Positions 10,108-41,846 of a stretch of 42,175 bases of DNA are shown here, in pieces. Positions within the stretch are counted from its first letter, which is position 1, and each line of letters starts with the position of its first letter. A program made the position numbers and the translations under genes. Source of the stretch: a candidate division WOR-3 bacterium (GTDB lineage Bacteria > Hydrothermota > Tepidihabitantia > SM23-42 > JAOAFX01); NCBI GenBank assembly GCA_039802145.1, contig JBDRWA010000003.1, positions 1-42,175 on the forward strand. The letters run 5' to 3'. The notes beneath the pieces are model-generated. The model was not told the origin of the DNA and searched no databases. It saw only the letters and a program-made list of their open reading frames with translations.

Positions 10108-10135
10108 ATTTTAATCCAATTTTATTGTATGTCAA
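10108..10135 (-). promoter_or_regulatory. sigma70-type promoter of hutU operon, TTGACA-16-TAAAAT
   Basis: -35 at 10135-10130, -10 at 10113-10108, followed by a short leader with GGAGG. Confidence 0.7.
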
Positions 10136-10210
10136 GTTAAATTTTTCGCTTTTAAATTGTTATAGTTATTTTTATTGAGGGTCTGAGCTTGTCAAAAGTT
10201 TTATAAACTC

Positions 10211-10265
10211 AATTTCAAAAGTCAACTTTTTCCAGGCTGTCTGCAAAGTGTTGACCTTTGAATTT
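10211..10265 (-). other. Long imperfect stem-loop downstream of the SDR gene (terminator or structured RNA candidate)
   Basis: Arms TTCAAAAGTCAAC (10214-10226) and GTTGACCTTTGAA (10250-10262). The single mismatch becomes a G-U pair on the minus strand. Confidence 0.5.
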
Positions 10266-10291
10266 CTTTTATCTAAAAAAAACCTAACTAT

Positions 10292-11050
10292 TTATCTCAT
10301 ATAACTTCCGGCATTGATATCTATTGTACATCCTGTGGCATGGTCCATAAATCCACTTGCAAGGAACAATACCGCAGGTGCTACATCTTCAGGTGCAGTC
10401 AATTCATTTAAGGCAAGATTTTTAATAATACTATTGACACCAAATTTTTTTATGTAATCATCTATCATCCTGGTTTTTACAAAACCCGGAGCAACAACGA
10501 AGCATTTAATATTATCCTTCCCATATTCTTTGGCAATTGTTCTACTCAATGTAACTATTCCGCCTTTCGCAGCACCGTAAGCCCAGTGGTCCTTATCTTC
10601 CCCTCTAAATGCAGCACGAGACGCAATATTTATTATCCTTCCACCACCGGATTTTTGAAAATACTTCACCGCCTCACGGCACAACACGGCAACCGATGTA
10701 AGATTTATATTTATGGTTCTATTCCAATCCTTTAACCATCTTAATATTTTTCTACTAATTGGTGATGATTCATATATCCCGGCATTATTGACAATGGCAT
10801 CAAGCCTTTTATACTCTTTAACAACTTTGTTAATTAAAGAAGCACATTCTTCAGGTTTTGCAAGGTCTGCAAAGAATATTTTTGAATTGTTGCCAATCTC
10901 TCTGGCAAGTTGATTTGCTCTTTTTCTATCACTATAATAGTGGATCCCGATTGTCGCACCATATTCACCGAGCAATCTTACTATTGCTGAACCTATGCCA
11001 CCTGTTGCACCGGTGATTAGGATAACGTTTTTCTTAAGATCTATTACCAT
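10292..11050 (-). CDS. Short-chain dehydrogenase/reductase (FabG-like SDR)
   Basis: TGATGGIG, VNNAG, INIAS, YGAAK, APGFVKT. Confidence 0.93.
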   Translation of the reverse strand: MVIDLKKNVILITGATGGIGSAIVRLLGEYGATIGIHYYSDRKRANQLAREIGNNSKIFFADLAKPEECASLINKVVKEYKRLDAIVNNAGIYESSPISRKILRWLKDWNRTININLTSVAVLCREAVKYFQKSGGGRIINIASRAAFRGEDKDHWAYGAAKGGIVTLSRTIAKEYGKDNIKCFVVAPGFVKTRMIDDYIKKFGVNSIIKNLALNELTAPEDVAPAVLFLASGFMDHATGCTIDINAGSYMR

Positions 11051-11056
11051 TGATAA

Positions 11057-11084
11057 ATAATAATCAAAAAATCTTCGTAATCAA
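11057..11084 (-). promoter_or_regulatory. Promoter TTGATT-16-TATTAT, 6 nt upstream of the SDR ATG (leaderless)
   Basis: Read directly; no SD before ATG 11050. Confidence 0.6.
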
Positions 11085-11133
11085 GATGTGAATCTTTGCC
11101 GCGAAATACTTAATGTAAAAAAACAAAAAGATA

Positions 11134-11161
11134 TTGACTTTTCTTGAAAAATGGGTATAAT
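11134..11161 (+). promoter_or_regulatory. Promoter TTGACT-16-TATAAT, 7 nt upstream of the rplM ATG (leaderless)
   Basis: Read directly; no SD before ATG 11169. Confidence 0.75.
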
Positions 11162-11168
11162 TTTTGCT

Positions 11169-11597
11169 ATGAAAACAAAGGTCTTAAAGAAGAATGAGAT
11201 AAAGCGAAACTGGTATGTGGTCGACGCCCAAGGTAAAATACTGGGAAGAATGGCAACCAGGATTGCCAGGATTCTAATGGGTAAAGATAAGCCACAGTAT
11301 TCACCCCATGTTGATTGTGGGGATTATGTGGTTGTGCTCAATGCTGATAAATTTAAGGTCACGGGCAATAAGCTCGAGGATAAGATTTATTATCGACATT
11401 CTTTTTATCTCGGTGGCTTGAAGGCGATTAATCTAAAACTTATGCTTGAAAAGAATCCCCAAAAGGTGCTCTATCATGCGGTCAGCGGAATGCTGCCAAA
11501 GAATAAATTCCGAGCACGAAGGCTTAAAAGATTGAAAATTTATCTTGGAACTGAGCACCCTCATAAGGCACAATCACCAAGGGAAATTAAGGTGTAG
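11169..11597 (+). CDS. rplM: 50S ribosomal protein L13
   Basis: MKT..RNWYVVDAQGKILGRMAT, GKDKPQYSPHVDCGD, GMLPKN. Start moved from 11151, which lies inside the promoter. Confidence 0.97.
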   Translation: MKTKVLKKNEIKRNWYVVDAQGKILGRMATRIARILMGKDKPQYSPHVDCGDYVVVLNADKFKVTGNKLEDKIYYRHSFYLGGLKAINLKLMLEKNPQKVLYHAVSGMLPKNKFRARRLKRLKIYLGTEHPHKAQSPREIKV

Positions 11598-11608
11598 GAG
11601 GTTTATTG

Positions 11609-11992
11609 ATGGAATCAATCTTCACCGGTTCACGTAAGAGGAGTGTAGCAAAAATAAGATTATTCCCTGGCAAAGGGATTATAAAAATAAACGGTAAAGA
11701 CCCTATTAAATATTTCTGTCGCCAAGATCTTGTTGATCTTGTAAATCTTCCGCTAATCACCGCAGGTGTGAAGGGAGCGGTAGATATCTATGCAAAGGTT
11801 TCAGGTGGTGGAGTTTCGGGTCAGGCAGGTGCGGTTAGCTTAGGGATTGCCAAGGCGCTCGTCAATTTCAATCCCGAGCTGAGACCAACACTAAAAAGTG
11901 CCGGATTATTGAAAAGGGACCCGCGGGAAAAAGAACGGATGAAATATGGACTGGCAAAGAGGCGCAAAAGATTCCAGTTCTCCAAACGTTAA
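11609..11992 (+). CDS. rpsI: 30S ribosomal protein S9
   Basis: GSRKRSVA, SGGGVSGQAGA, RDPREKERMKYGL, QFSKR; AGGAGG RBS. Confidence 0.97.
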   Translation: MESIFTGSRKRSVAKIRLFPGKGIIKINGKDPIKYFCRQDLVDLVNLPLITAGVKGAVDIYAKVSGGGVSGQAGAVSLGIAKALVNFNPELRPTLKSAGLLKRDPREKERMKYGLAKRRKRFQFSKR

Positions 11993-12007
11993 AGCGAAGG
12001 AGGTATT

Positions 12008-12715
12008 TTGGAGATAGTTACAATGCAGGAATTGATAAGTACCGGAATACATTTTGGACATAGAACAAAGCGTTGGAATCCCAAGATGGCTAAATATATT
12101 TTCGGGAAAAAGAATGGAGTCCATATCATTGATCTGCGTCAGACCCTTGAAAGTCTTAAAAAAGCCTATGAAACAACGGTTCGTATTGCTGAACAAGGCA
12201 AAGGGATATTATATATCGGAACCAAAAAACAGGCACGGGATGTTATAAAAGAAGAGGCATTAAGGGCAGGTGCATTCTATATCACTGAACGCTGGCTTGG
12301 TGGTTTACTTACAAATTTCAACACATTATATACCAGAGTTCAGAGATTGAGAGAACTGGAGCAGATGAAAGAAGATGGACGTTGGTCAATGTTGCCAAAA
12401 AAGGAACTTGTTCGTTATGAACGCGAATTTACGAAATTATCAAAGTATTTTGAAGGGATAAAAGAAATGGACAGGCTTCCGGGGCTGGTATTTATCGTTG
12501 ATGTAATAAAAGATGCTACCGCGGTGAAAGAAGCGAAGAAGGTAGGCATTCCGATAATTGCAATAGTAGACACAAATACCGATCCTACCGATGTAGATTA
12601 CCCAATTCCTGGAAACGATGATTCACTCAGGGCGATTTCACTTGTTGCAAAGATCATTTCTAATGCGGTCCTTGAAGGTAGAAAAGGTTTTGAAACCGAA
12701 GAAAAGGAGGCATAA
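12008..12715 (+). CDS. rpsB: 30S ribosomal protein S2
   Basis: GIHFGHRTKRWNPKM, RWLGGLLTN, IPGNDDS; TTG start with AAGGAGG. Confidence 0.97.
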   Translation: MEIVTMQELISTGIHFGHRTKRWNPKMAKYIFGKKNGVHIIDLRQTLESLKKAYETTVRIAEQGKGILYIGTKKQARDVIKEEALRAGAFYITERWLGGLLTNFNTLYTRVQRLRELEQMKEDGRWSMLPKKELVRYEREFTKLSKYFEGIKEMDRLPGLVFIVDVIKDATAVKEAKKVGIPIIAIVDTNTDPTDVDYPIPGNDDSLRAISLVAKIISNAVLEGRKGFETEEKEA

Positions 12716-13303
12716 ATGGATACCGAAAAAATCAGGGAGTTAAGGGAGAGGACCGGTGCAGGTATTGTTGATTGTAAAGATGCCTTGATGCAGGCAAATG
12801 GAGATATAGAACAGGCAGTTGATATTTTGAGAAAGAAAGGAGTTGCCCTTGCGGCAAAAAAGGTAGGCAGAATTACAAAAGAAGGCATTATTGATGCCTA
12901 TATTCATCCCGGTGATCGATTAGGAGTGCTTGTTGAGGTGAACTGTGAAACAGATTTTGTTGCCCGCAATCAGGATTTTCGTAGGTTTGTTCATGATATT
13001 GCATTGCAGATCGCCGCAAGCGAACCACTGGTAGTCAGTCGTGAGGAATTAACCCCGGAAATAATTGAAAAGGAAAAAGAGATATACCGGAGTCAGATGC
13101 AGGATGTGAAAAAACCGCCCGAAATAATAGAAAAGATTATTGAAGGTAAGATGGAGAAGTTTTATAACTCTGTCTGCCTTTTAGAACAGCCTTTTGTAAA
13201 AATTCCAGAAAAGACCGTTGGTGACTATTTGAAAGAACAGATTGCAAAATTCGGCGAAAATATTGTCATCAGAAGATTTGTTCGTTTTCGCCTCGGTGAG
13301 TAA
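12716..13303 (+). CDS. tsf: Translation elongation factor Ts (short, about 195 aa type)
   Basis: LRERTGAGIVDCKDAL, EVNCETDFVA, LLEQPFVK. Confidence 0.96.
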   Translation: MDTEKIRELRERTGAGIVDCKDALMQANGDIEQAVDILRKKGVALAAKKVGRITKEGIIDAYIHPGDRLGVLVEVNCETDFVARNQDFRRFVHDIALQIAASEPLVVSREELTPEIIEKEKEIYRSQMQDVKKPPEIIEKIIEGKMEKFYNSVCLLEQPFVKIPEKTVGDYLKEQIAKFGENIVIRRFVRFRLGE

Positions 13304-14003
13304 AGACAAGATAAAATACAAAAGAATTCTTTTGAAAATATCCGGTGAAATACTCGGACAGGATGATGAAGTTATAACACCGAGAATATTGCATTATATC
13401 ACTGAACAAATCCTTTCAGTTTATAAACTTGGTGTTAAAATTGCTGTCGTGGTGGGTGGTGGAAATATCATAAGAGGTAAAGAGGTTTCCTGGTTAAGCC
13501 CGGTGGAGGCAGATTTATGTGGGATGGTCGCAACGGTAATAAATGGTATGGCACTTTGTTCCATACTGAAAAAAAAGATAGATAATGTCTATTTACGCAG
13601 CAGTTTTGAAGTAACGGGATTTGTAGAAAGTTTCCACAAAATAGAAGACCAGACGATTTATAACCAGGGCGGGGTAATAATTCTTGTTGGTGGAACAGGC
13701 AATCCTTTATTTACCACTGATACTGCCGCAGCACTTCGAGCAGTTGAACTATCTTCAGAATTACTTATAAAAGGGACAAAGGTTGAAGGGGTATATTCAT
13801 CCGATCCCCAAAAAAATAAAAATGCAAAATTTTATCGTAAATTGAGATTTCAGGAAGCGATTAAAAAAAATTTAAATGTTATGGATATCACAGCATTTAG
13901 GATCTGCAAGGACGCAAATATTCCTATCTATGTTTATAATCTTATGAAATATCCTCTCAAAAAGATTATTTATGGAGAGGCGGTGGGTACTCTTGTCTAT
14001 TGA
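13296..14003 (+). CDS. pyrH: UMP kinase
   Basis: RILLKISGE, VVGGGNI, GGTGNPLFTTDTAAALRA, GVYSSDP; GTG start at 13296 overlapping the tsf end. Confidence 0.95.
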   Translation: MSKDKIKYKRILLKISGEILGQDDEVITPRILHYITEQILSVYKLGVKIAVVVGGGNIIRGKEVSWLSPVEADLCGMVATVINGMALCSILKKKIDNVYLRSSFEVTGFVESFHKIEDQTIYNQGGVIILVGGTGNPLFTTDTAAALRAVELSSELLIKGTKVEGVYSSDPQKNKNAKFYRKLRFQEAIKKNLNVMDITAFRICKDANIPIYVYNLMKYPLKKIIYGEAVGTLVY

Positions 14004-14021
14004 AAGTTTCAGGAGGATTTT

Positions 14022-14579
14022 ATGATAGAAAAAATCAAAAATGATGCGCGTCAGAAGATGGAGAAATCCATAAGCCTTTTAAATCAAGAATTTGCAAAGA
14101 TAAGGACCGGTCGGGCAACGCCTGCACTCCTTGATGGTGTAAAGGTTGAGTATTATGATAGCCTTTTGCCATTGAATCAGGTTGCCAGTATCAACATCCC
14201 TGAGCCCAGATTGATTGTGATCCAACCCTGGGATAAACAGGCACTTTCTGCGATTGAGAAGGCGATATATAAGGCAGATATTGGTTTAACACCGAATAAT
14301 GATGGAAATGTGATCAGACTCACCTTGCCACCCTTGACCGCGGAAAGAAGAGAAGAACTTGTGAAGCTCACCCAGAAACTCGCTGAAGAATGCAGGGTGG
14401 CAATAAGAAACATTAGAAGGGATGCAAATAATGAGTTGAAAAAAACAGAAAAGGAAAAAAAGATTTCTGAAGACGATTCATTTAAAGCGCAGGAATCAAT
14501 CCAGAAAATGACCGATGAGTACATAAAAAAAGTTGATGAAATACTCAAGAAAAAAGAAAAAGAGATCAGAGAAGTTTAA
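14022..14579 (+). CDS. frr: Ribosome recycling factor
   Basis: IRTGRATP, PLNQVASI, LTAERREEL, AIRNIRRDAN; AGGAGG RBS. Confidence 0.97.
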   Translation: MIEKIKNDARQKMEKSISLLNQEFAKIRTGRATPALLDGVKVEYYDSLLPLNQVASINIPEPRLIVIQPWDKQALSAIEKAIYKADIGLTPNNDGNVIRLTLPPLTAERREELVKLTQKLAEECRVAIRNIRRDANNELKKTEKEKKISEDDSFKAQESIQKMTDEYIKKVDEILKKKEKEIREV

Positions 14580-15257
14580 CTAATCAAATAGCCGATAAAA
14601 AAACACCATACCTATTCCTGAATGGTTTAAAACTGCGCTTGGATTATTATGATTTTCAGGTCCAATATATATATATTCCATTTCCTCGTTGTAATATAAA
14701 TAACCATCTTTATTGAAAAACTGGTCATTTAATAGATAATTATAACAAATTTCTAATTTGAATTTTTTAAATTCCCTGCTTAACCCCACGAACAAACCTA
14801 CATCATTGCTTGTAAAAATTTTTGGATATGCATCGTCCATTTCATAATTGCTCTGAGCATCAATGTTCAATTTTGTACATGAGATCTCAAACCCACTTAT
14901 AAAGCTTACTGGACCTATATTGAGATTAAATTTAATGTCAATCGGTATACGGTCGTATTTCCACTCTTCTTTTAGATTCAGCGTATCAGTGAGACTATGG
15001 TATGTGAATTCACCGCTATTCTTATCCCTGAAATAGTAAACTGAAAGACTGGCTGAAAAATTTTCAATCTTCATAAATTCTAATTCTAAGGTTGGTGAAT
15101 ACAAGAAATTATTAAATCTGCCTAAATCCCCATTCCAGCCAAGCATTGATGCCCGGTTTTCGAGAAATTGGAAATGTTTATTAAAATGACCAATTGTGCA
15201 ATAATTTATCTTTAATCCAATATAAAATGGGAGAAAACCGATAAGAAAGAAAATCAT
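14580..15257 (-). CDS. Hypothetical protein, possible outer-membrane beta-barrel
   Basis: Alternating aromatic/polar beta-like segments, C-terminal GIGMVFFYRLF; ATGA-coupled to the upstream gene. Confidence 0.5.
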   Translation of the reverse strand: MIFFLIGFLPFYIGLKINYCTIGHFNKHFQFLENRASMLGWNGDLGRFNNFLYSPTLELEFMKIENFSASLSVYYFRDKNSGEFTYHSLTDTLNLKEEWKYDRIPIDIKFNLNIGPVSFISGFEISCTKLNIDAQSNYEMDDAYPKIFTSNDVGLFVGLSREFKKFKLEICYNYLLNDQFFNKDGYLYYNEEMEYIYIGPENHNNPSAVLNHSGIGMVFFYRLFD

Positions 15258-16237
15258 GGTGGTAAAGGTGTATCAGAAAAAGATAATAGAGTAGATTCCT
15301 TTTCAAGGTCGTCACTAAATGAGATAAGAAATCTTTTATCATTGACCACTGCGATTACGGGTAATTCTGAGATAGATGCAAAATTATGGACTATGCCCAT
15401 AGAGATATCATATACCTTGCCGTCGGCATATAATTTAAATGCATTTACATTTAACCCATCTGAATAGAAAAGCAAGAGCCCATCCTCAATTCCCGCAATC
15501 GTTGCCGCACTATAATTTCCATGGTATAACTCAATCCAGTTTGTCCAATCTTGAGACATTAAAATTCGCTTCTGGATTAAAAGATAAAGTCTTTGTTTTT
15601 TATCCATCGCAAAACCACTTATTAGGTCGGTTTCTAAGGTATAAAGAGTATCCCATCGAAGACCTTGATCGATTGAACAAAATAGAAAATGCGTGGTTGC
15701 TACAAATAGTTCTCCGGATTCTTTGACAGAAAGATTTATGATTTTTTCTGAACTACTTAATATTGTATCAATGTCAACGCCTGCAATATCAGATTTCAAT
15801 AAAATACTGTTACCCGCGAGATAAAATATTGATGTATCCAAGGGTGAGAATGAAAGGTGTTCAATTTGTTCAATATCTGGAAAGGAAATTATTTTTATCA
15901 CTCCGTCCATACTACAATAATAAACCTCTCTATTATCAGTTCCAATGAGCAATCGCTGGGGAGTATTAAAAGAAGATGCAATAACTGTGGAGGCTCTATA
16001 TGGATAGGTAATCGGCAATCGTTTTATGATAGAGTCCTGAAGGATATATATATTGTACTGACTGCCGATGAAAAATTCGTTTCTGTTAATTTTTGATGCC
16101 TCTATGTGGTAAATCAAATCCTCAAAATTAATTTTCTTCCAGCAATCTTCAAATTCGTCACCAAGCGGAACAAAGTGCCCATAATAATCAGTGCAGGCAA
16201 TAAAAAGCAAAATTATGAGCAGATGTTTTTTTTTCAT
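15254..16237 (-). CDS. Hypothetical lipoprotein, probable beta-propeller (BNR/Asp-box-like)
   Basis: Lipobox LFIAC; SIDQGLRWD Asp-box-like motif; repeated short beta-strand pattern. Confidence 0.6.
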   Translation of the reverse strand: MKKKHLLIILLFIACTDYYGHFVPLGDEFEDCWKKINFEDLIYHIEASKINRNEFFIGSQYNIYILQDSIIKRLPITYPYRASTVIASSFNTPQRLLIGTDNREVYYCSMDGVIKIISFPDIEQIEHLSFSPLDTSIFYLAGNSILLKSDIAGVDIDTILSSSEKIINLSVKESGELFVATTHFLFCSIDQGLRWDTLYTLETDLISGFAMDKKQRLYLLIQKRILMSQDWTNWIELYHGNYSAATIAGIEDGLLLFYSDGLNVNAFKLYADGKVYDISMGIVHNFASISELPVIAVVNDKRFLISFSDDLEKESTLLSFSDTPLPP

Positions 16238-16773
16238 CTTAAATCAAGATATAAAATTCTAAAACATAATTTGGGGGAATCCGACTCCATCAGCGTATCT
16301 TTATTATTATCTTTGATTTCTAAAGGTACTGAGTTATGTCCTGAGACTGCACCGATTATTGGGAAAGGCAGTACAAAAAGCCCTGCCCAGTATTTTGCAT
16401 CTTTAGAAATATGTGAGGAGATGAGAATCGTGCATAAGCCGAGTTGTACCCCAATAAGGCTATTTTTTATTGCTTTAACAAAAGATTTTCTTGAATGATT
16501 TTTATTATAAGGGCTGAAATGGATAAAAGAAGATGCGCAGATGGGCATTCCTATGGTATAACCGAACAAATAACCAAGTTCCTGAGTAAAATTTTCAGAA
16601 TAGTGATTTATTGTGGAAAGAGAAAAAAATGTAATATAAGCAGCTGAGACGAATCCAACTGTCCCACCAATAAATCCATGGATTCCATCTACAAAATAAT
16701 TGTGGTCTCTTACAATTACTGAATCAATAGAATTGATGCTTAAACTCACTATTGAAAGAATCAAAACAATCAT
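16234..16773 (-). CDS. Hypothetical membrane or exported protein with Gly-rich hydrophobic helices
   Basis: Start reassigned to ATG 16773, directly downstream of a promoter. The track's TTG at 16890 lies upstream of that promoter. Confidence 0.6.
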   Translation of the reverse strand: MIVLILSIVSLSINSIDSVIVRDHNYFVDGIHGFIGGTVGFVSAAYITFFSLSTINHYSENFTQELGYLFGYTIGMPICASSFIHFSPYNKNHSRKSFVKAIKNSLIGVQLGLCTILISSHISKDAKYWAGLFVLPFPIIGAVSGHNSVPLEIKDNNKDTLMESDSPKLCFRILYLDLR

Positions 16774-16781
16774 TTCTTCAA

Positions 16782-16809
16782 ATTCTATATAACTATTCCC
16801 ATATGTCAA
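16782..16809 (-). promoter_or_regulatory. Promoter TTGACA-16-TAGAAT, 8 nt upstream of ATG 16773 (leaderless)
   Basis: Read directly. Confidence 0.7.
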
Positions 16810-17240: not shown

Positions 17241-17690
17241 ATGGCAGATAAACTGATAAAAAGATGGGACCCATTCAGGGAATTGATGTCTTTAAGAGAC
17301 GATATGGATAGGTTATTCAACGCATTCTTTGGTAAACCAATTGCTGAAGAAAGTGAAGGAATATGGATTCCAGTGATTGATATTGAAGAAGATAATGAAA
17401 ATTTCATTGTAAGTGCTGAACTTCCTGGTTTGAAAAAAGAAGATGTTAAGATTTCGGTCAGGGGCAATCTGCTTACCATCTCCGGTGAAAGAAAACAGGA
17501 ATCAGAGACAAAAAACAAGACCTATCATCGGGTTGAAAGAATGTATGGAAAATTCTCAAGGACAATAACATTACCGAGCGAAGTTGATGTCAATAAGATA
17601 AAGGCGGTATATAAAGATGGTGTGCTCCACATTACCCTGCCTAAGCCTGAAACAATGAAGCCTAAAGAGATTGAGGTTGAAATAAAATAG
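17241..17690 (+). CDS. Small heat-shock protein, Hsp20/alpha-crystallin family
   Basis: WDPFREL, PVIDIEE, ELPGLKKEDV, ERMYGKFSRTITLP, AVYKDGVLHITLPK. Confidence 0.96.
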   Translation: MADKLIKRWDPFRELMSLRDDMDRLFNAFFGKPIAEESEGIWIPVIDIEEDNENFIVSAELPGLKKEDVKISVRGNLLTISGERKQESETKNKTYHRVERMYGKFSRTITLPSEVDVNKIKAVYKDGVLHITLPKPETMKPKEIEVEIK

Positions 17691-17698
17691 AGGTGACA

Positions 17699-19189
17699 AT
17701 GGAAGCTAAGATCTCATTAAAATCCGCAGGGATTATTGCTGGAGTTGCTGCGATTGTTGCCTTCTTATTCGGGTTGATTATTAGTACAGGGATTCCTGGT
17801 ATTTCAAACAAAACCGAAGCAAGTCAGGGCACGGTTGGATTAAACCCAATCGTTACCGAACAAGGAGAGAGTCCTTTTACAAGGGTTGCAGAGATGGTAT
17901 CACCCGCAGTTGTAAATATCTCAGCGGAAAGGACCGTGAAGACCGGGTTTGAAGATTTTGAATGGAATTTCCGTGGTCCGTTTGAAGACTTCTTCCGTGA
18001 TTTCTTCAAAAATTTTCCTCGTGGCGATACCAAAACCAAAACACTCGGCTCTGGATTTATTATCTCTGAAGATGGCTATGTGGTAACAAATCACCATGTC
18101 ATAAAGAATGCGACAAATATAATAATTCGGCTTACAAACAAAAAAGAATACAAAGGCAATGATGTCAAGATAATCGGTTCTGATTCACGGACTGATGTGG
18201 CTCTGTTAAAAATAGAGACAAAAGAAAGACTTCCTTACTTAAAATTTGGTGATTCTGATAAAATTAAAGTTGGCGACTGGGTAATGGCTGTTGGCAATCC
18301 TTTCAATCTTGAAGGAACGGTTACCGTCGGTGTGATATCAGCAAAAGGCAGGAGTCATATTCCATTGAGCGAAGGACCGGATTTACAGAATTTTTTGCAG
18401 ACAGATGCGGCGATAAATCCTGGTAATTCAGGAGGTCCATTATTAAACCTTCAAGGTGAAGTAATAGGCATTAATACGGCAATTACATCAACAAGTGGTG
18501 GTAATATCGGAATTGGTTTTGCGATACCTATAAATCTCGCAAAGAATATTATTGAAGAACTGAAGTCAAAAGGTAAGGTTACAAGAGGTTATCTTGGCGT
18601 ATATCTTGAAGATTTGACCGAGGATATGAAGAATGCCTTGAATCTTTCATCCCTTGATGGGGTTATGATTAATGAGGTAATTGCTAATTCACCTGCCGAC
18701 AATGCTGGAATAAAAGAAGGTGATGTGATTATTGAATATGATGGGAAGAAGGTGACTGATGTCCAGTCATTCAGAATTATGGTTGCATCAACGACTCCTG
18801 GCAGGACAGTAAGGTTAAAATTGATAAGGAATGGGAAGGAAATGGATTTGAAAGTGAAGATTGGTGAAATGAAGGAAGAGGTTGCTGGTGTGGTTGGAGA
18901 AAAACAGGGGGCTGAACTTGGTTTGCAAGTTGTGGATATTGACAGTCCTGATGCAAAAGTATATAATATTAGCGCTAAAAAAGGGGTTGTCGTGACGAAT
19001 GTTGAATCCGATTCTCCTGCTGGTAATGCTGGACTACAAACTGGCGATGTCATCATTAGTATAGACAACAAGAAGATTGATGATATATCTGATTTCAAGA
19101 AGGCAGTAAAGGAATTAAAGAAGGGAAAGCCAGTGATCTTCCAGATTCAACGAGGTGAGAGAAAAAGGTATGTAGCAGTGACACCATAG
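17699..19189 (+). CDS. degP: DegP/DegQ (HtrA, Do) serine endoprotease with two PDZ domains
   Basis: LGSGFII, TNHHV, TDVAL, QTDAAINPGNSGGPL, two PDZ repeats; GAGGTG RBS before ATG 17699. Confidence 0.93.
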   Translation: MEAKISLKSAGIIAGVAAIVAFLFGLIISTGIPGISNKTEASQGTVGLNPIVTEQGESPFTRVAEMVSPAVVNISAERTVKTGFEDFEWNFRGPFEDFFRDFFKNFPRGDTKTKTLGSGFIISEDGYVVTNHHVIKNATNIIIRLTNKKEYKGNDVKIIGSDSRTDVALLKIETKERLPYLKFGDSDKIKVGDWVMAVGNPFNLEGTVTVGVISAKGRSHIPLSEGPDLQNFLQTDAAINPGNSGGPLLNLQGEVIGINTAITSTSGGNIGIGFAIPINLAKNIIEELKSKGKVTRGYLGVYLEDLTEDMKNALNLSSLDGVMINEVIANSPADNAGIKEGDVIIEYDGKKVTDVQSFRIMVASTTPGRTVRLKLIRNGKEMDLKVKIGEMKEEVAGVVGEKQGAELGLQVVDIDSPDAKVYNISAKKGVVVTNVESDSPAGNAGLQTGDVIISIDNKKIDDISDFKKAVKELKKGKPVIFQIQRGERKRYVAVTP

Positions 19190-19193
19190 ATTG

Positions 19194-20033
19194 ATGAGGA
19201 TACCGAAACGGGTAACAGAAAGGGGGTTGAAGCAATTTATAGAGGAAATTAGCAAATATCCGCTTCTTTCAAAAGATGAAGAATTTGAACTCGCACGCAG
19301 AATAAGAGAAAAAAAAGACAGCGCAGCAAAAGAAAAATTAATACTCTCAAATCTGAGGAATGTCATTCATATATGCAAAAATTTTCAGGATTATGGGTTG
19401 GGTTTGAGTGAACTGATAAATGCAGGAACGCAGGGATTGATCCATGCTATAGAGAAATTTGATGAAAGAAAAGGGTATAGATTGAGTACATATGCAACCT
19501 GGTGGATAAAGCGAGAAATTTACAAGGCAATATTCTCCGACCAAGAGCTTATCCCCAAGAGCCATCTGGCAAGACGCATAAAGATGTTCATTCCAAATTT
19601 TGTCCAGGAACATGGGCGCGAACCAACAATTCAAGAAATTGCAAAACACTTTAAAGTTTCAATCCATCAGGTCTCAAATGCCATGACGGAATTACTACCG
19701 ATGCTTTCGCTGGATGAAGCACAGGCAGATGAAGATGCCGGTCCTTTTATAGAAACTTTATCCATTGAGCAGTCTGCTGCGGAAAAATTTGTTTTGCCTT
19801 CGCCCGAAGAAATTTTAAAACAAAAACAGGAGACAGAACGAATTCAGCAGGTATTAAAAAGACTTTCACCAAGGGAAAAAGAGATAATCGAGAGGAACTT
19901 TGGGCTCGGAGATTTTGAAGCCCAGAGCCTTGAAGAAATAAGCAGGTTGATGAATATCACAAAGGAGAGGGTGAGACAGATAAGGGATAATGCATTGAAG
20001 AAATTGCGTTTGATTCTGCCACGGATAAAATAA
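19194..20033 (+). CDS. Alternative sigma-70 family factor (regions 1.2-4, no 1.1)
   Basis: YPLLSKDEEFELA, LILSNLR, GLIHAIEKFDERKGYRLSTYATWWI, GREPT, SLEEISRLMNITKERVRQI. Confidence 0.92.
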   Translation: MRIPKRVTERGLKQFIEEISKYPLLSKDEEFELARRIREKKDSAAKEKLILSNLRNVIHICKNFQDYGLGLSELINAGTQGLIHAIEKFDERKGYRLSTYATWWIKREIYKAIFSDQELIPKSHLARRIKMFIPNFVQEHGREPTIQEIAKHFKVSIHQVSNAMTELLPMLSLDEAQADEDAGPFIETLSIEQSAAEKFVLPSPEEILKQKQETERIQQVLKRLSPREKEIIERNFGLGDFEAQSLEEISRLMNITKERVRQIRDNALKKLRLILPRIK

Positions 20034-20583: not shown

Positions 20584-20611
20584 ATTATAATCACAGAATT
20601 TTCTCTGTCAA
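20584..20611 (-). promoter_or_regulatory. Promoter TTGACA-16-TATAAT, 5 nt upstream of the hslV ATG (leaderless)
   Basis: Perfect consensus hexamers; no SD. Confidence 0.78.
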
Positions 20612-20614: not shown

Positions 20615-20642
20615 TTGATTTTATTCAAATTTTGAGTATAAT
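20615..20642 (+). promoter_or_regulatory. Promoter TTGATT-16-TATAAT of serA-DUF1015, back-to-back with the hslV promoter
   Basis: Read directly; AAGGAGG follows. Confidence 0.72.
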
Positions 20643-29777: not shown

Positions 29778-29805
29778 ATTATAGTCTTTTTTTCTATCAA
29801 GTCAA
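29778..29805 (-). promoter_or_regulatory. Promoter TTGACT-16-TATAAT of the stomatin...nadD operon
   Basis: Read directly; GGGAGG RBS follows. Confidence 0.72.
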
Positions 29806-32375: not shown

Positions 32376-32403
32376 ATTATAATAATTTTTTTTAGTAAAT
32401 CAA
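32376..32403 (-). promoter_or_regulatory. Promoter TTGATT-16-TATAAT, 5 nt upstream of the holB GTG (leaderless)
   Basis: Read directly; same TATAAT-AATC(T/C)-start layout as hslV. Confidence 0.7.
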
Positions 32404-35427: not shown

Positions 35428-35432
35428 TTTTA

Positions 35433-36335
35433 TTAGACAACCAAGCTATTTAGTCTTTCTATTCTTTTATCTATAGGGGGGTGGGTTGAGAACAGATTAG
35501 AGATATTAAATCTGTCTTTGCCGAACGGGCTCGCAATGAATAAATGGGCATTTGACTGGGATGCCTTTGCCATTGGCTGATAGGCTTGTTTCAATTTAGC
35601 CAGTGCTTGAGCAAGCCCCTGGGGGTAACGGGTGATATAGGCACCTGATGCATCGGCGAGATATTCACGCTGTCGTGATATCGCTGCCCTTATCAATGCG
35701 ACAAATAATGGAGCGATGATTGCAAGAACAAGACCGATTAATATCAAAATTCCCCCACCTCTACCACTGCGACTGCTTTTCCGTCTGCCTCCTAAAAACA
35801 TACCCCGCAAGAAGAAGTCCCTTAACAAAACAATCAAACCACCGATTGCTGCAACCACGGTCATCAAAAGAATATCATAGTTTCTTATATGTGCCATCTC
35901 ATGAGCAATGACCCCCTGCAATTCTTCACGATTCATAATCTCAAGCAAACCCGTAGTAACAGCAACTGCTGCATTCTGTGGGTTCCTGCCTGTAGCAAAT
36001 GCGTTGGGCGCAGGTGAAGGTGTGATGTAAACTTTAGGTTTTGGGACGCCTGCGGCAATCGCCACTTCTTCAACAACATTATGAAGTTGTTTAAATTCTT
36101 CAGGATCAGCAGGGACTGAGCCGGTGGAGGCAAGGGCAATTTTATCTGAATTATAGTAAAGAACAAAATTGTAGATGATTATGAAAAGGGCGAAGAAGAT
36201 ATATCCTGCGGTTCCCCAGTTTAGGAGTTCAACAACAACATATCCGAGTGCGCCAAGAAAGAGGCTGGTTATCACTATAAAAATAAAGGTCTTGCGCTTA
36301 TTTGCAGCTATCTGGTCATATAGTGTTTCGCGCAT
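35433..36335 (-). CDS. htpX: HtpX family M48 zinc metalloprotease
   Basis: PNAFATGRNP, AVTTGLL, HEMAH, SRQREYLAD, FSTHPP. Confidence 0.95.
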   Translation of the reverse strand: MRETLYDQIAANKRKTFIFIVITSLFLGALGYVVVELLNWGTAGYIFFALFIIIYNFVLYYNSDKIALASTGSVPADPEEFKQLHNVVEEVAIAAGVPKPKVYITPSPAPNAFATGRNPQNAAVAVTTGLLEIMNREELQGVIAHEMAHIRNYDILLMTVVAAIGGLIVLLRDFFLRGMFLGGRRKSSRSGRGGGILILIGLVLAIIAPLFVALIRAAISRQREYLADASGAYITRYPQGLAQALAKLKQAYQPMAKASQSNAHLFIASPFGKDRFNISNLFSTHPPIDKRIERLNSLVV

Positions 36336-36336
36336 A

Positions 36337-36879
36337 TTAGAATTTTACCTTTACTGCCTCTCTTTCTTCAGCCGGAGCGGTGAAGAATTCTCTTGGTTTG
36401 AAATTGAACATTGAAGCAATTATCGTCTGCGGAAATTTCTGTATTGTGACATTATAATCCATTACGACATCATTATAAAATTGCCGGGCAAAGGCAATTT
36501 TATTTTCGGTTGCAGTCAATTCTTCCTGGAGTCTCATAAAATTCTCATTTGCCTTTAACTGCGGGTAATTTTCAGCAACCGCGAACAAAGTTTTTAATGT
36601 TGCACTGAGCATATTGTTCGCTTCAGCAGCTTCCTTAGGACTGGTTGCACCCATCGCCCTTGAGCGCAACTCTGCAACCTTTTCCAGAACTTCTTTTTCA
36701 TGTGCCGCATAACCCTTAACGGTTTCTACCAGATTCGGTATCAAATCATAGCGGCGTTTCAATTGCACATCAATCTGTGCCCAGCCATTATCCACTCTGG
36801 TCCTTTTGGTTATGAGACTATTATAAATTGCAATAACCCATATTACCAGAAGGATAATGACAATTAAAAGTATTATCAT
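36337..36879 (-). CDS. lemA: LemA family protein
   Basis: WAQIDVQLKRRYDLIPNLVETVKGYAAHE, ENYPQLKANENF, ARQFYN. Confidence 0.96.
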   Translation of the reverse strand: MIILLIVIILLVIWVIAIYNSLITKRTRVDNGWAQIDVQLKRRYDLIPNLVETVKGYAAHEKEVLEKVAELRSRAMGATSPKEAAEANNMLSATLKTLFAVAENYPQLKANENFMRLQEELTATENKIAFARQFYNDVVMDYNVTIQKFPQTIIASMFNFKPREFFTAPAEEREAVKVKF

Positions 36880-36898
36880 TGAACCTCCATTTTTATAA

Positions 36899-36926
36899 AG
36901 TTTACTTAAAATCCTTAATTTGTCAA
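36899..36926 (-). promoter_or_regulatory. Promoter TTGACA-16-TAAACT of the lemA-htpX operon
   Basis: Read directly; GGAGG at 36888-36884. Confidence 0.65.
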
Positions 36927-36962
36927 CTGCTAATAATAATTAATAATTTAAAATGAATTTAT

Positions 36963-39083
36963 TTATCTTTCTGATAAATTTAAACCGAGTTTTTCCATAA
37001 TAAAAGACCAAACATCAACATCTTCGTCAATCTGTTCAGAAAGTGTTGTTCCACCACCATGACCAGCATATCTGCGCACAATAAGCAGAATTGGTTCTTT
37101 ACCGCTCTGATTTTCTTGGACCTTTGCTGCCATCTTCATTGCGTGCATTGGATGGCATCTTGGATCATTATCGCTTGCTTCAAAAAGAACCGCAGGATAT
37201 TTACACCTTTTGACATTGTGATACGGCGAATATTTAATTAAGTATTCAAATTGTTCCGGATTATCAGCACTACCATATTCTTCTGCCCAGATATTCGCAT
37301 AACTCAATTTATGATACCTGAGCATATCAAGTAAAGGGACACCCACATAGACAACTTTAAATAATTCCGGTGCTTGGACTAAAGCTGCTCCCATAAGAAG
37401 CCCACCATTGCTTGCACCACCAATTGCAAGATGCTTGGGACTTGTGTATCTATTTTCAATGAGATATTTTGCTGCATATATAAAATCATCAAAGACATTC
37501 TGTTTTTTATCAAGCATCCCTGCCTTATGCCATTCATCGCCGAATTCTCCACCTCCACGCAGATTCGGAATTGCGATCATCCCTCCGGATTCAAGAAAAA
37601 CCGCATAGTTTGTTGAAAAATAAGGTCCCACCGATATTTTGAACCCCCCATAGCCGGTTAAATAAGTCGGATTTTTCCCATTATTTTGTATATTTTTATG
37701 ATGCACAAGAAACATTGGAATTTTTGTTTTGTCCTTGGAACTATACCAGACCTGTTCTACAACAAAATCAGATAGGTCAATATCAATAGGCGGACGGTGA
37801 TACATAACCAATCTATCATTTTCAAAATCGTACTTATATATCGTTGGTGGATGTGTAAAAGATGTAAATGATAACCAAACATCTGGTTTTGACCAGTATC
37901 CCCAGACCCAGGCATTGCCAAGGGTTGGTAGTGGCAAATCTCTGATGTATTTCCCTTCAATTGTATAAATCTTTATAATCTTGTAGGCATTATGAGTATA
38001 AACCGCGTAAAGATGTCCACCAATTGCATCTATGTATTCAAGATTATCAGTCGTTTCGGGAATAATTTCTATCCAGTATTTCTTATCTAATTTATCAATT
38101 GTGGTTGAGAATACCCTTCCATTTGGTGCATTGAGGTTAGTTTTGATTATCAAACGTTCATCAACCAATATTATAGTATACTGGGCATCAAATCCTGTAA
38201 CAATTGGTTTCATTGGCTCTTCAGAATCCAACTCTTGAATATAGACTTCATCTTTATAGAACATCGAACGGTAAAAAAGAATGTATTTGCCATCTTCGGT
38301 AACAACTGCATTGTGGAAATATTCTTTTATCTCAGTATGAAAAAATATCTTTTTATCTTCGGAACCCGGCGTGCCAAGTCTATGTAAATACACAGCATCC
38401 CAGTAGTTTTCTTCACCCTCAGGTACAGTCCCTTTCAGCGGATTTGCAGTGTAATAAAAGCCTGAATTGTCAGGAAGCCAGGATATTCCACTCTGACGCC
38501 AGCCCTGAAGCGAATCAGGTAAGATGCTACCTGTTTCTACATCCATAATTTTTATAATTGGATTTTCTTTTCCTGCATCTTCAATTCCATAAGCAACGTA
38601 CTTACCGTCGCGTGATGGATAGACAGCTCCAAGTGTTTTTAACCCCCATTGGTTGGGGTCGAGCAAAAGGACTGGTTCTGTTGTTTCATTCTCTTTTGTA
38701 TAATATGCCCATCTCTCCCATCCTTTTTTTATTGCGGAATAAAAAATTCTTTCACCAACCAAGACTTTATGCGGCGCGGATTCATCATCGTATCGTCTTA
38801 ATTCAGTAAACCTTTTCTTTAGCCATTCCCGGTGAGAAATTTTATTAAGAAATGCCCGCGATAATCTATTCTGCGCTTCAACCCATTCTTTAACTTTGTG
38901 ATCATTGAAATCTTCTAACCATTGATATTCATCAATAATAATTTTACCATAAAATGTATCTTCAACTGGATTCTTTTTAGTCTCAGGATAGATTATTTTC
39001 GTATATTTCATAGTACACATAAATGCCATTAAAAAAAAAGCATAAAAACCAAATATATAGGGCTTTTTCGCACTATTTTTCAA
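36963..39083 (-). CDS. Prolyl oligopeptidase (S9A), probably exported
   Basis: DEYQWLED, GYGGF, NLRGGGEFG, KQNVFDDF, GASNGGLL, DPRC, GHG catalytic motifs; hydrophobic N-terminus. Confidence 0.95.
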   Translation of the reverse strand: MKNSAKKPYIFGFYAFFLMAFMCTMKYTKIIYPETKKNPVEDTFYGKIIIDEYQWLEDFNDHKVKEWVEAQNRLSRAFLNKISHREWLKKRFTELRRYDDESAPHKVLVGERIFYSAIKKGWERWAYYTKENETTEPVLLLDPNQWGLKTLGAVYPSRDGKYVAYGIEDAGKENPIIKIMDVETGSILPDSLQGWRQSGISWLPDNSGFYYTANPLKGTVPEGEENYWDAVYLHRLGTPGSEDKKIFFHTEIKEYFHNAVVTEDGKYILFYRSMFYKDEVYIQELDSEEPMKPIVTGFDAQYTIILVDERLIIKTNLNAPNGRVFSTTIDKLDKKYWIEIIPETTDNLEYIDAIGGHLYAVYTHNAYKIIKIYTIEGKYIRDLPLPTLGNAWVWGYWSKPDVWLSFTSFTHPPTIYKYDFENDRLVMYHRPPIDIDLSDFVVEQVWYSSKDKTKIPMFLVHHKNIQNNGKNPTYLTGYGGFKISVGPYFSTNYAVFLESGGMIAIPNLRGGGEFGDEWHKAGMLDKKQNVFDDFIYAAKYLIENRYTSPKHLAIGGASNGGLLMGAALVQAPELFKVVYVGVPLLDMLRYHKLSYANIWAEEYGSADNPEQFEYLIKYSPYHNVKRCKYPAVLFEASDNDPRCHPMHAMKMAAKVQENQSGKEPILLIVRRYAGHGGGTTLSEQIDEDVDVWSFIMEKLGLNLSER

Positions 39084-40410
39084 CTTTTTCTAAGGTAAAC
39101 TCACCGACTGCAGAAAATTCCTCACCACTTAAAAGGTCGGTGGTACGTGCCACGATTATATAATTACCCGCAGGTAAATCCATTGGATGGTATTTGGCTC
39201 CTATGTATGCAACATCCCCGCCACTACTTCCAGTCTGGGTCATAATATCAACTATCTCCTTCCGCATTTTCTCTTTATTGTAGATCTCATAATCGGTCTT
39301 TAATAAATATTGCCCTTCTTGCATTTTTAAATTATAGACTTCATGGTAAACATAAAATGGCGTAGAAATCGGCAGGACCGGATGAACAAGCGGCATAACC
39401 CTTCCCACTGGTTTATAGAATTTCTCATCACACATTGATTCATCAATCAATTTCCCAAATACCAGGTCACTTATCTTCTTTGCATCATCCTTATAATCAA
39501 GCAAATCAGCAGAAAACTCTTTTTTCCCACTCTCTTTTGTCTTAAGGTTAGTATATTCTATTACCACCTTATATTTCTGAGGCGGCAACCATAAATTGAG
39601 TTCATCATAAAAATATTCTTTTTCCCCACTTACTGGCACTAAGATACTATTTTTTTCAGTTATAATACTATCTGACTGATTATATATCTGTGCTCTCCGC
39701 AACAACCTGCAATTCAGTGTATCATCAATAAAAAGCTGTGCATATATCTCCAGTCTCACAAGTTCTTTCCTCTGCCTGAAACGACCAAATGATACATTAA
39801 AATTTAACTTACCTGAAGGGATAATTTCAGAAATTATCTGACTGAGTGTATCTTCTCGTAGATACGGTATAATTACATTTTCTCCAAATTGACTCCGGGC
39901 AATTATCTTATAAGCGCGAGCAAGCCTAATAAAATCAAACTCAATTCCTTCATTTTTGTAAGTCCATATCTCTGCGGGCCTGACATATTCCTTGGTCACA
40001 ATACCAACTTTTTTCTCAGGCGTAATAACATACCGTCTTGTGGGATTTCCATATTTCACATATACTGGGATACGGTCATCACTCAGCGGGGCATGTTTTC
40101 CAAATTCCTTAAATGCATATTCTGACCTTTTTTCAAACTCCCGATGCTCATCATCTCTGCCCTGCCAGTACTGGTCATAGAAAATTTTTCTTTCTGTTGC
40201 TGAAGGAAGATTGAGATATTTATCAGCAGCAATTGAGTCAATACCCCGTAAACCCAAATATAACTTACGCTCTTTTTCTAAGAGGCGATAATATTTTGCG
40301 CCGAGAATATTACCAGCACATGCTAATGCCAAGAATAGAAAATACAATAAAAATTTCCTATATCTATGAAGATAGAAACCTTTCATTTTTCTAAAAACGA
40401 TGCCTATCAT
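39073..40410 (-). CDS. GWxTD-like domain lipoprotein (GWxTD-like N-terminal, beta-sandwich C-terminal)
   Basis: LALAC lipobox; FYDQYW..EFEKRSEYAFKEF..SDDRIPVYVKYGNP..EIWTY resembles GWxTD domains; AGGAGG RBS. Confidence 0.65.
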   Translation of the reverse strand: MIGIVFRKMKGFYLHRYRKFLLYFLFLALACAGNILGAKYYRLLEKERKLYLGLRGIDSIAADKYLNLPSATERKIFYDQYWQGRDDEHREFEKRSEYAFKEFGKHAPLSDDRIPVYVKYGNPTRRYVITPEKKVGIVTKEYVRPAEIWTYKNEGIEFDFIRLARAYKIIARSQFGENVIIPYLREDTLSQIISEIIPSGKLNFNVSFGRFRQRKELVRLEIYAQLFIDDTLNCRLLRRAQIYNQSDSIITEKNSILVPVSGEKEYFYDELNLWLPPQKYKVVIEYTNLKTKESGKKEFSADLLDYKDDAKKISDLVFGKLIDESMCDEKFYKPVGRVMPLVHPVLPISTPFYVYHEVYNLKMQEGQYLLKTDYEIYNKEKMRKEIVDIMTQTGSSGGDVAYIGAKYHPMDLPAGNYIIVARTTDLLSGEEFSAVGEFTLEKVEK

Positions 40411-40440
40411 AAAACCTCCTTTTAATTAACCAGACATTTC

Positions 40441-41655
40441 TCACTCAGTAAGTTTTGAAACCCCAATCAATTCAAAGGTTCCATCGTTATTTATATCTTT
40501 GAATATTACCTGGAGTCCTTTTAATTCATAAACCCAAACAACCTGTGGTTCACTTATATGTGAACCATATAAAACCTCGGACCTTTTTGGCGGTGGCATC
40601 ACATAACTGCGAACTTCATCGGGCGGACCATTGATAATATAATATTTACCCATTGGTGTATCACGTCCCCTTATAAAGGGGGTTGAAAATTTTCTATCTG
40701 CTTCAAGTACCCTTGTTTCAAATTCTTTATAGTTCCTTTTTGACCAGAATTTTTTAAGATAAAGTTTTTTCTCTTCCTTGCTCATTTTGAGAAATTTTTT
40801 ATATTCTTTTTCTGAAATAAGATACTTAATCTCCCAGGCAAGTGGTTCATCAGTTATATCTGGCAATGATTCAATAATCTTAAATCTGGATTTTTTTTGC
40901 ACCTTCACATTTAATGTTGGTTCAACTATCTCAACTGAAATTGTATATTCACCCGCAGAAAAATTTTCTAAGAGTATAGATAGTGTATCAAATTGGGTAC
41001 AATCGTATTTAAGGCGTTTGAATGAATTGTCATAAATTATTCTGCGTTTATCATCTTTTATCTGATAATGAACTCCATAAAATAAACTGTCCGGTACAAG
41101 TCCATAGATTTCTGTATAGCAGAAGAGAATATCCCTGTTAGAATATTCGGGCTTAATTAATGGGATCAACTCAACACCCTTGCGATAAAAACCTTTATTC
41201 TTACGGATATTACCGGATAACAATAAATCACTCGTATAAAACAGAGCAGTGTCAGGTAGAACCTCTATCCTCCCTTTTTTTCTAATCATTTCCCCACCAG
41301 ACGCAATTTCAAAATAAAAAGAGAAATTTCCTGATGGAAGATAAAGTGGGAAGTAATCAAAAATGTAATTTTCCTTATTAGAAGTATTTTTTATTATTGT
41401 ATATTTTTCACCCTCCTTCAATACAGAATCATTTTTTTCAATATAAACTACAAACCGGTATAAATAGTGTTTCACTATAGAATCAGCCGGTGCGGATAGT
41501 TCATCAATCGAAAAAATATTTTCAGCAGGGATTTTATACCAGAATTCACAATATCCTTCTTCAAATTGATAAAGCGCAGTCTCTATTCCTGAATTTATTT
41601 GATTCTGAAAAATTAAATATAAAATAAGATGGCATAGATAAATTACTATCTCCAT
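40441..41655 (-). CDS. GWxTD-like domain protein (beta-sandwich N-terminal, GWxTD-like C-terminal)
   Basis: IKYLISEKE, KKFWSKR..RVLEADRKFS..GRDTPMGKYYIINGPPD..VWVY; SDLLL and YTEIYGL motifs. Confidence 0.72.
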   Translation of the reverse strand: MEIVIYLCHLILYLIFQNQINSGIETALYQFEEGYCEFWYKIPAENIFSIDELSAPADSIVKHYLYRFVVYIEKNDSVLKEGEKYTIIKNTSNKENYIFDYFPLYLPSGNFSFYFEIASGGEMIRKKGRIEVLPDTALFYTSDLLLSGNIRKNKGFYRKGVELIPLIKPEYSNRDILFCYTEIYGLVPDSLFYGVHYQIKDDKRRIIYDNSFKRLKYDCTQFDTLSILLENFSAGEYTISVEIVEPTLNVKVQKKSRFKIIESLPDITDEPLAWEIKYLISEKEYKKFLKMSKEEKKLYLKKFWSKRNYKEFETRVLEADRKFSTPFIRGRDTPMGKYYIINGPPDEVRSYVMPPPKRSEVLYGSHISEPQVVWVYELKGLQVIFKDINNDGTFELIGVSKLTE

Positions 41656-41663
41656 TTACACTA

Positions 41664-41691
41664 ATTATATATGTGTCATGAGCAATGTCAA
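41664..41691 (-). promoter_or_regulatory. Promoter TTGACA-16-TATAAT, 8 nt upstream of ATG 41655 (leaderless)
   Basis: Perfect hexamers; no SD. Confidence 0.78.
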
Positions 41692-41818
41692 GAAAAAAAT
41701 CTTTAGATTATCTTAATATCTATTTACCAAATTCACCGCAAAAATCCCTGTTTATAAATATGGTTGAAGGTAGCCCTTTGAATTTGGCTAAATGACTTAA
41801 TAACTACCCAACAAAGTA

Positions 41819-41846
41819 TTGATTTTTTTTAAAATTTAAATATAAT
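41819..41846 (+). promoter_or_regulatory. Promoter TTGATT-16-TATAAT, 7 nt upstream of the atpB ATG (leaderless)
   Basis: Read directly; no SD. Confidence 0.72.

Follow-up and report, generated by a model that had tools for sequence, protein, structure and literature searches.

Does the RNA polymerase (RNAP) of a candidate division WOR-3 bacterium work from promoters whose two hexamers lie 16 bp apart instead of 17? The question arises from a 42,175-nucleotide stretch of its genome (the window; contig JBDRWA010000003.1 of GCA_039802145.1), in which an earlier note had listed 11 consensus-matching housekeeping promoters, all with a 16-bp spacer, and had proposed that the RNAP or primary sigma factor of this lineage has a shifted spacer preference. 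A spacer of 17 bp is regarded as a near-universal constant in bacteria and has been built into promoter predictors and synthetic-biology designs. In the genome examined here, and throughout its close relatives, the spacer peaked sharply at 16 bp. Judging from the sequences, we regard it as probable that the sites are working promoters of the sigma-A/sigma-70 type and that the 16-bp rule reflects the geometry of the lineage's own RNAP holoenzyme.

The window was scanned with the pattern TTGAYW-N16-TANNNT, and the background was estimated from 100 shuffles. Fourteen matches were found, compared with 4.30 ± 1.82 in the shuffled sequences, none of which reached 14 (0/100). All 11 sites of the earlier note were recovered among them at the coordinates it had given, and the three further matches are at 1831 (+), 10788 (+) and 29773 (−), the last overlapping the listed site at 29778. 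When the spacer of this degenerate pattern was set to 13, 14, 15, 17, 18, 19 and 20 bp, 8, 4, 5, 7, 5, 9 and 7 matches were obtained, so the raw count at 16 bp is just modestly enriched in the window. The striking feature was placement: at 11/11 listed sites, a start codon follows the −10 box by 5–22 nt. Five of the seven 17-bp matches, on the other hand, are antisense within genes; the match at 10910, also antisense, falls within the SDR gene and precedes rplM by about 230 nt.

The whole genome was then considered. The window is contig C3 of assembly G000, which comprises 1,996,620 bp in 150 contigs with a GC content of 37% (37.3%), and is 85.6% complete and 7.1% contaminated. The genome-wide spacer histogram, named in the earlier note as a test that could refute its proposal, showed a sharp peak at 16 and not at 17. 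TTGAC[AT]-Nx-TATAAT, with x from 13 to 20, occurred 2, 4, 2, 259, 26, 3, 0 and 2 times, placing 288 of the 298 exact matches at 16–18 bp. Perfect TTGACA-Nx-TATAAT promoters numbered 143 at 16 and 19 at 17, with 0–5 at each other spacer from 10 to 25 bp. When one mismatch to the consensus was allowed, 268 sites at 16 and 57 at 17 were counted against a background of 40.8 ± 9.5. Both hexamers are thus of the sigma-70/sigma-A type (TTGACA, TATAAT), and the textbook mode of 17 bp was not found. All 259 of the 16-bp spacers were unique, and 29 of 33,411 spacer pairs shared at least 13 of 16 bases. Because all 259 spacers differ, the sites do not form a repeat family, and a repeated element carrying the promoter was ruled out. 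Gene starts, crudely called, were found close to most sites, with 205/259 lying within −30 to +300 nt of one. A promoter with at most two mismatches was present within 120 nt upstream of 24 of the 36 tRNA genes; its spacer was 16 bp in 21 cases, 17 bp in two and 19 bp in one. Downstream of the promoters, start codons or tRNA 5' ends were located at 5–22 nt.

Set against the consensus for sigma-70 of E. coli, the hexamers are identical, the sites lie upstream of genes and have a housekeeping role, and the group-1 RpoD of same-genus relatives aligns without gaps over regions 2 to 4. The differences are in the mode, which is 16 and not 17, in the far narrower distribution (259, 26 and 3 at 16, 17 and 18 bp), and in the abundance of perfect promoters, 143 here, which are almost absent in E. 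coli.

In order to see how far the rule extends, 151 genomes of the phylum were scanned with the fixed-spacer patterns TTGACW-N16/17-TATAAT. Families are labelled f1, f2 and so on; the window's order includes f1, f2 and f3, and f21 is a family of another class of the same phylum. The ratio of 16- to 17-bp sites was about 10:1 in all seven sampled f1/f2 genomes (259:26, 361:30, 331:35, 300:20, 266:26, 298:36 and 261:29; sum 2076:202). For f3, hand tallies of 80:15 and 35:11 were obtained among the matches listed, i.e. 3–5:1, and other families of the window's class favored 16 by about 1.3:1 to 4.5:1. Family f21 was as strict in the opposite direction, with 10:192, 5:265, 6:331, 3:243, 7:299, 8:210, 8:277 and 5:190 in its eight genomes (sum 52:2007, about 1:39), i.e. 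strict 17 bp. Families f14, f28, f32, f25, f36, f23 and f11 also preferred 17. A lean to 16 was seen in f12, f15, f22 and f24 (about 1.6 to 4.5:1 in most genomes, with one f22 and one f24 genome near 1:1) and in f17 (about 1.6:1). Families f27, f30, f33 and f10 gave nearly no matches to these patterns (0–9 per genome), and a different grammar may govern their housekeeping promoters. Most f27, f30, f33 and f10 genomes carry full-length reverse gyrase.

Reversed-pattern controls gave 0–5 matches per strand. Outside the phylum, the scan returned 17 where 17 is expected, with 16:17 counts of 2:9 in Elusimicrobium simillimum, 7:19 in a Bacillota metagenome-assembled genome (MAG) and 4:37 in a Fusobacteria MAG; an Agathobacter genome had too few matches (1:0). 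Base composition was ruled out as the cause, because 606 kb of the f21 genome G098, whose GC content equals that of the window's genome (37.5% versus 37.3%), show a peak at 17, with 82 sites at 17, one at 16 and none at 18. The nearest named relatives by RpoD are Candidatus Stahlbacteria, placed by NCBI in a candidate phylum, and candidate division TA06 bacterium DG_78, at 68–72% identity. DG_78 showed 224:35; its RpoD and that of the window's genus share 71% identity. The spacer mode therefore varies inside the phylum, and the clade of the window has it sharply at 16.

Since the genome comes from a hot-spring data set, the state of the DNA deserved attention. An altered twist of the chromosome, through temperature, relaxed or positive supercoiling or nucleoid proteins, could shift the spacer length at which the hexamers are in register. 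By geometry, a shorter spacer needs overtwisting, which is favored by relaxed DNA. However, the distribution of genes does not follow the trait. Full-length reverse gyrase was found in 31/151 genomes but in 0/7 f1/f2 and 0/8 f21 genomes, and it does occur in families f14, f28, f32 and f25, all of which prefer 17. GyrA was found in 3/3 genomes of the window's order and in one of the two f21 genomes tested. Reverse gyrase or loss of gyrase was thus ruled out as the cause by gene distribution across 16- and 17-preferring families. Moreover, the 224:35 ratio of DG_78 comes from what we take to be an estuary-sediment organism and not a hot-spring one. Spacer length also affects supercoiling sensitivity just slightly, according to the accessible portion of one study (PMC8695583). 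Taken together, an explanation by DNA state appears quite improbable.

The earlier note's proposal of a shifted RNAP or primary-sigma preference is supported by this lineage-specific peak, as far as preference can be read from promoter usage. From the same usage, the cause most likely lies in the polymerase.

The rule was compared with published surveys. The accessible portion of a study of 49 species with mapped start sites describes 17 bp as predominant (PMC12641261). A 2026 preprint, again in its accessible portion, gives a median spacer of 17 bp in every genome of a 49-genome panel, and across 67 phyla reports 17 bp as enriched in 60 and significantly below the equal-use baseline in none (bioRxiv 10.64898/2026.09.23.753901). 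In the literature searched, no 16-bp optimum was reported for a primary sigma factor, and no account of WOR-3 or Stahlbacteria promoters was found. What the earlier note observed is real, strong and lineage-wide, and a strict lineage-wide 16-bp rule is a new form of sigma-70-type promoter.

We were then interested in the anatomy of these promoters. A sequence logo built from 257 exact 16-bp promoters showed a T-tract from −19 to −17; position −16 is T in 76% and position −15 a purine in 68%, and there is no conserved base at −14 and −13. The discriminator (−6 to −1) is AT-rich. The TG of an extended −10 element at −15/−14 occurred in 11/259 promoters, which is the chance level, and a TG shifted one position upstream in 68/259. 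The consensus of the lineage is therefore TTGACA, a 16-bp AT-rich spacer with a conserved T at −16, and TATAAT, with no TG extended −10. Directly before the −35 box, this genome has A or C and avoids T (3%).

The 17-bp promoters of f21 are of the TRTGn type: 80% have T at −17, 92% a purine at −16, 76% T at −15 and 67% G at −14. These promoters resemble the TRTGn ('−16 region') sigma-A promoters of Gram-positive bacteria, and both share with the window's lineage a strong −35, a strong −10 and a T-tract followed by a purine. The difference lies in the TG at −15/−14, present in 1141/2007 f21 promoters versus the 11/259 given above. In f21 the base just ahead of TTGACA is a C with 89% conservation, and the T-rich stretch from −42 to −38 is UP-element-like. 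The T-tract and purine stand at equal distance from the −35 box in the 16-bp lineage and in f21. To compare the two spacer profiles, each column of the 17-bp f21 profile was deleted in turn and the remainder was compared with the 16-bp profile, with 500 bootstraps. The best deletion was −15 or −14 in 500/500 bootstraps; the sum of squared differences was 0.90–0.94 when −15 or −14 was deleted and 2.0–2.26 for any of the first 13 columns. This result places the base pair that is missing relative to f21 at the former TG position. It describes this pair of lineages and is not a cause.

Promoter usage is open to another interpretation, in which RNAP binds best at 17 bp and selection keeps near-perfect hexamers one bp off, either to avoid complexes too stable for promoter escape or to leave them open to regulation, as at E. 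coli rrn P1. E. coli stable-RNA promoters often have a 16-bp spacer, and the tRNA genes of the present genome use 16 bp as well. The hexamers here are unusually near consensus, the 2.0 Mb containing 143 perfect promoters. Among the members of a synthetic E. coli library, 16-bp spacers equalled 17-bp spacers in mean strength, as stated in the accessible portion of the report (PMC8695583). However, f21 pairs perfect hexamers with TRTGn and 17 bp in 190–331 promoters per genome, so over-strong binding is tolerated in the phylum. In addition, the 16-bp rule applies to ordinary and stable RNA genes alike, and the discriminator is rich in AT instead of GC. E. coli rrn P1, a special regulated class with a 16-bp spacer and a GC-rich discriminator, is alike in having 16 bp between good hexamers and in serving stable RNA genes, but here the spacing is a general rule and the discriminator AT-rich. 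On this evidence, we consider it unlikely that the peak reflects usage held away from a 17-bp optimum.

The position of the promoters relative to genes was examined by measuring how many nt separate the −10 box from the first start codon that opens a reading frame of at least 60 codons. Peaks were found at 5 nt (44 sites), 6 nt (25), 7 nt (10) and 8 nt (16), together 95/259 sites at 5–8 nt, and 112/259 promoters had a start codon, mostly ATG, 0–9 nt past the −10 box. About 40% of the consensus promoters thus abut a start codon and should give leaderless mRNAs, as predicted from their sequence. Existing leaders are about 10–15 nt long and contain GGAGG. In family f21, few promoters lie near a start codon (about 11/82). 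The leaderless promoters of Deinococcus-Thermus and Actinobacteria likewise place the −10 box right at the start codon, as described in the accessible portion of PMC12340547, and on that description the strong −35 at a fixed 16 bp is what sets the present promoters apart.

Within the window, 7/11 listed promoters are of the leaderless type. The SDR gene is preceded by TTGATT-N16-TATTAT at 11057..11084 (−), with ATG 6 nt past the −10 box, and rplM by TTGACT-N16-TATAAT at 11134..11161 (+), with ATG after 7 nt. The promoter at 16782..16809 (−), TTGACA-N16-TAGAAT, has its ATG 8 nt past the −10 box, and the open reading frame downstream of it had no family match. The hslV promoter at 20584..20611 (−), TTGACA-N16-TATAAT, stands 5 nt before an ATG, and the holB promoter at 32376..32403 (−), TTGATT-N16-TATAAT, 5 nt before a GTG. 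The remaining two are those of the GWxTD-domain gene at 41664..41691 (−), TTGACA-N16-TATAAT with ATG after 8 nt, and of atpB at 41819..41846 (+), TTGATT-N16-TATAAT with ATG after 7 nt.

The other four have short leaders in which GGAGG follows almost directly on the −10 box. The hutU promoter at 10108..10135 (−), TTGACA-N16-TAAAAT, is followed by a GGAGG Shine-Dalgarno sequence and a start codon 16 nt past the −10 box. The promoter of serA (phosphoglycerate dehydrogenase) at 20615..20642 (+), TTGATT-N16-TATAAT, leads to a TTG start after 18 nt, behind GGAGG. For the SPFH (HflK/C-like, 'stomatin') gene, TTGACT-N16-TATAAT at 29778..29805 (−) lies 22 nt before an ATG preceded by GGGAGG, and for the LemA/MamQ-like gene, TTGACA-N16-TAAACT at 36899..36926 (−) lies 19 nt before an ATG preceded by GGAGG. 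The names that the earlier note had given to the genes proved right for hutU, SDR, rplM, hslV, phosphoglycerate dehydrogenase, the HflK/C-like SPFH protein, holB, the LemA/MamQ-like protein, the GWxTD protein and atpB.

The window also contains a sigma factor gene at 19191-20033 (+), encoding 280 aa, which raised the possibility that a factor other than RpoD reads these promoters. As a primary sigma it was not borne out: the RpoD model, with a cut-off of 354, gave it a score of 171 bits, and its best models were RpoS and RpoH, indicating an RpoS/RpoH-like alternative sigma. It stands head to tail on the + strand behind hsp20 (17241-17690) and a gene for an HtrA/DegP-like protease with two PDZ domains (17693-19189). 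From its gene order, the hsp20-htrA-sigma group looks like a stress operon carrying its own sigma, which would explain why no consensus 16-bp promoter was seen before hsp20. The statement that all promoters have a 16-bp spacer held for the 11 listed sites but not for the whole window, because one perfect-consensus 17-bp site, TTGACA-N17-TATAAT, was found at 18939-18967 (+). It lies within the htrA-like gene, about 220 nt upstream of the alternative sigma gene, and may be an internal promoter. It is one of just 19 perfect 17-bp sites in the genome.

A different sigma factor, or RpoD together with a lineage-specific accessory protein bound to the polymerase, could in principle set the spacing, and region 4.2 of the window's second sigma is close to that of RpoD. 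Nevertheless, region 2.4 is unlike that of RpoD, and the gene lies in the stress operon just described. With an RpoD query (E ≤ 1e-40), a second sigma was not matched in the 16-preferring f7 and f9 genomes and was matched in the 17-preferring f11 and f32 genomes. As these second-sigma matches do not follow the spacer trait, the window's alternative sigma is unlikely as the reader of the 16-bp promoters. Moreover, genes for ribosomal protein, ATP synthase, DNA polymerase and tRNA are among those that the promoters serve. Extracytoplasmic function (ECF) sigma promoters are similar in their very narrow spacer tolerance, around 16–17 bp. ECF-type motifs consist of a GGAAC-like −35 and a CGT-like −10, but the present sites have TTGACA/TATAAT hexamers, serve housekeeping genes and lack an ECF-type motif. 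That another factor sets the spacing is, on these grounds, very improbable.

If instead the holoenzyme formed with the primary sigma sets the rule, as we favor, the beta flap would hold sigma region 4, and the beta' clamp helices region 2, one bp closer to each other than in E. coli. Such a geometry would leave little tolerance for other spacer lengths, and the promoters would have co-evolved with it. The core subunits beta and beta' were compared in 21 genomes. No indel that separates the groups was seen in these 21 genomes at the beta flap tip, in the beta' zipper or in the zinc-binding region of beta'. The earlier note had pointed to the beta flap and the beta' zipper as places to look for indels; none was present, but the zipper carries substitutions specific to f1/f2, which read GEVTRAD...QRPE, versus GEVTK[P/A]E...QKPE elsewhere (KPE to RAD, QK to QR). 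In addition, the beta' clamp-helix tip in f1 and f2 carries one inserted residue, near E. coli residues 279-291, which was not in the four solved beta' chains among the matches listed. Sigma region 2 docks chiefly at the clamp-helix tip. Both the insertion and the RAD motif were present in 8/8 f1/f2 genomes, 0/2 f3 genomes and 0/16 genomes of other families, and track the step from about 3–5:1 in f3 to about 10:1 in f1/f2. They are the candidates specific to f1/f2 in the proposed mechanism.

Several further differences were noted in these subunits. About 10 residues are missing from the beta N-terminus in f1/f2 and present in all 15 other beta sequences aligned. The rpoB gene of the window's genome is on contig C61:3620-7325. 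One further assembly, G051, gave two rpoC matches with identical scores on contigs C13 and C30, probably an assembly duplicate.

For the sigma factor, RpoD was taken from relatives of the same genus. An RpoD_Cterm match of at least 347 bits in an open frame of 523–554 residues was found in 28/30 relatives. Residues 280-516 of the same-genus RpoD align without gaps to 132-368 of the solved SigA 8x6f_E, and residues 273-516 align to 369-612 of E. coli sigma-70 (4jk1_X) at equal lengths and again without gaps. From the YATWW motif to the C-terminus, 186–188 residues were counted in the window's order and 186–187 in f21. No indel separating 16-bp from 17-bp lineages was found in regions 2 to 4 among 77 RpoD sequences of the phylum. 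The suggested search for an indel in RpoD regions 3-4 was thus negative, and indels in regions 2 to 4 were rejected as a cause.

A sequence change was nevertheless found in region 3.0. The motif P[A/S]HI.D was present in 25/25 RpoDs read from the window's class (a set that excludes the window's own genome, whose assembly lacks rpoD), and RpoDs of other classes have P[V/I]HM.E-type motifs. All 25 genomes with P[A/S]HI.D favor 16, by 1.3 to 14.7:1. In E. coli numbering the motif corresponds to A454, H455, I456 and D458, that is, to the changes V454A, M456I and E458D. We take H455 and E458 of E. coli sigma to be the residues that read the extended −10 TG. This region 3.0 change would be the class-wide candidate, next to the two beta' changes specific to f1/f2. 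A narrower version of the mechanism is that RNAP is rigidly and intrinsically tuned to 16 bp through remodelled contacts at the upstream edge of the −10 element (clamp-helix tip, zipper, sigma 3.0). We put this forward tentatively, as a possibility drawn from comparison of the proteins that we lean somewhat against.

A holoenzyme-based origin of the rule has to be weighed against several points. The spacer histogram records the usage of the genome and not the preference of the enzyme. A look for RNA runs containing this DNA listed none. The rpoD gene was not found in the assembly of the window's genome, which is 85.6% complete. Because RpoD is gapless over regions 2 to 4, no simple change of sigma length explains the shift. 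The sigma 3.0 motif was ruled out as a necessary cause, since f12, f15, f22 and f24 have the canonical PVHM.E-type motif yet mostly favor 16, and as a sufficient cause, since f4, f5, f6 and f8 have the changed motif yet reach 1.3 to 3.7:1. Loss of the TG was likewise ruled out as a cause, because f14, f28 and f32 prefer 17 with TG at chance level (16/310). Finally, f1 and f2 probably form one clade, so the clamp-helix insertion and the RAD motif count as a single event; as every candidate change marks one clade, and hence one event, the correlation is statistically weak. The three candidate determinants (the clamp-helix insertion, the zipper changes and the sigma 3.0 changes) are confounded by phylogeny.

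These results have consequences for the study of this group. Promoter calling in these MAGs should use 16 bp, and, with promoters this sharp and near-consensus, operon starts and leaderless genes can be read from the sequence alone. A strict 16-bp clade stands beside strict 17-bp lineages in one phylum, so the spacer constant can evolve, and averaging at the level of phyla would hide such a clade. Matched 16-bp and 17-bp enzymes within one phylum also provide a route to the parts of sigma, beta and beta' that set the spacing. If the polymerase is indeed rigidly tuned to 16 bp, the phylum would contain two ill-fitting promoter dialects, one of 16 bp without TG and the other of 17 bp with TRTGn. 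It would then offer a natural experiment on what determines spacer length, and genes that pass from one group to the other could be limited in their expression.

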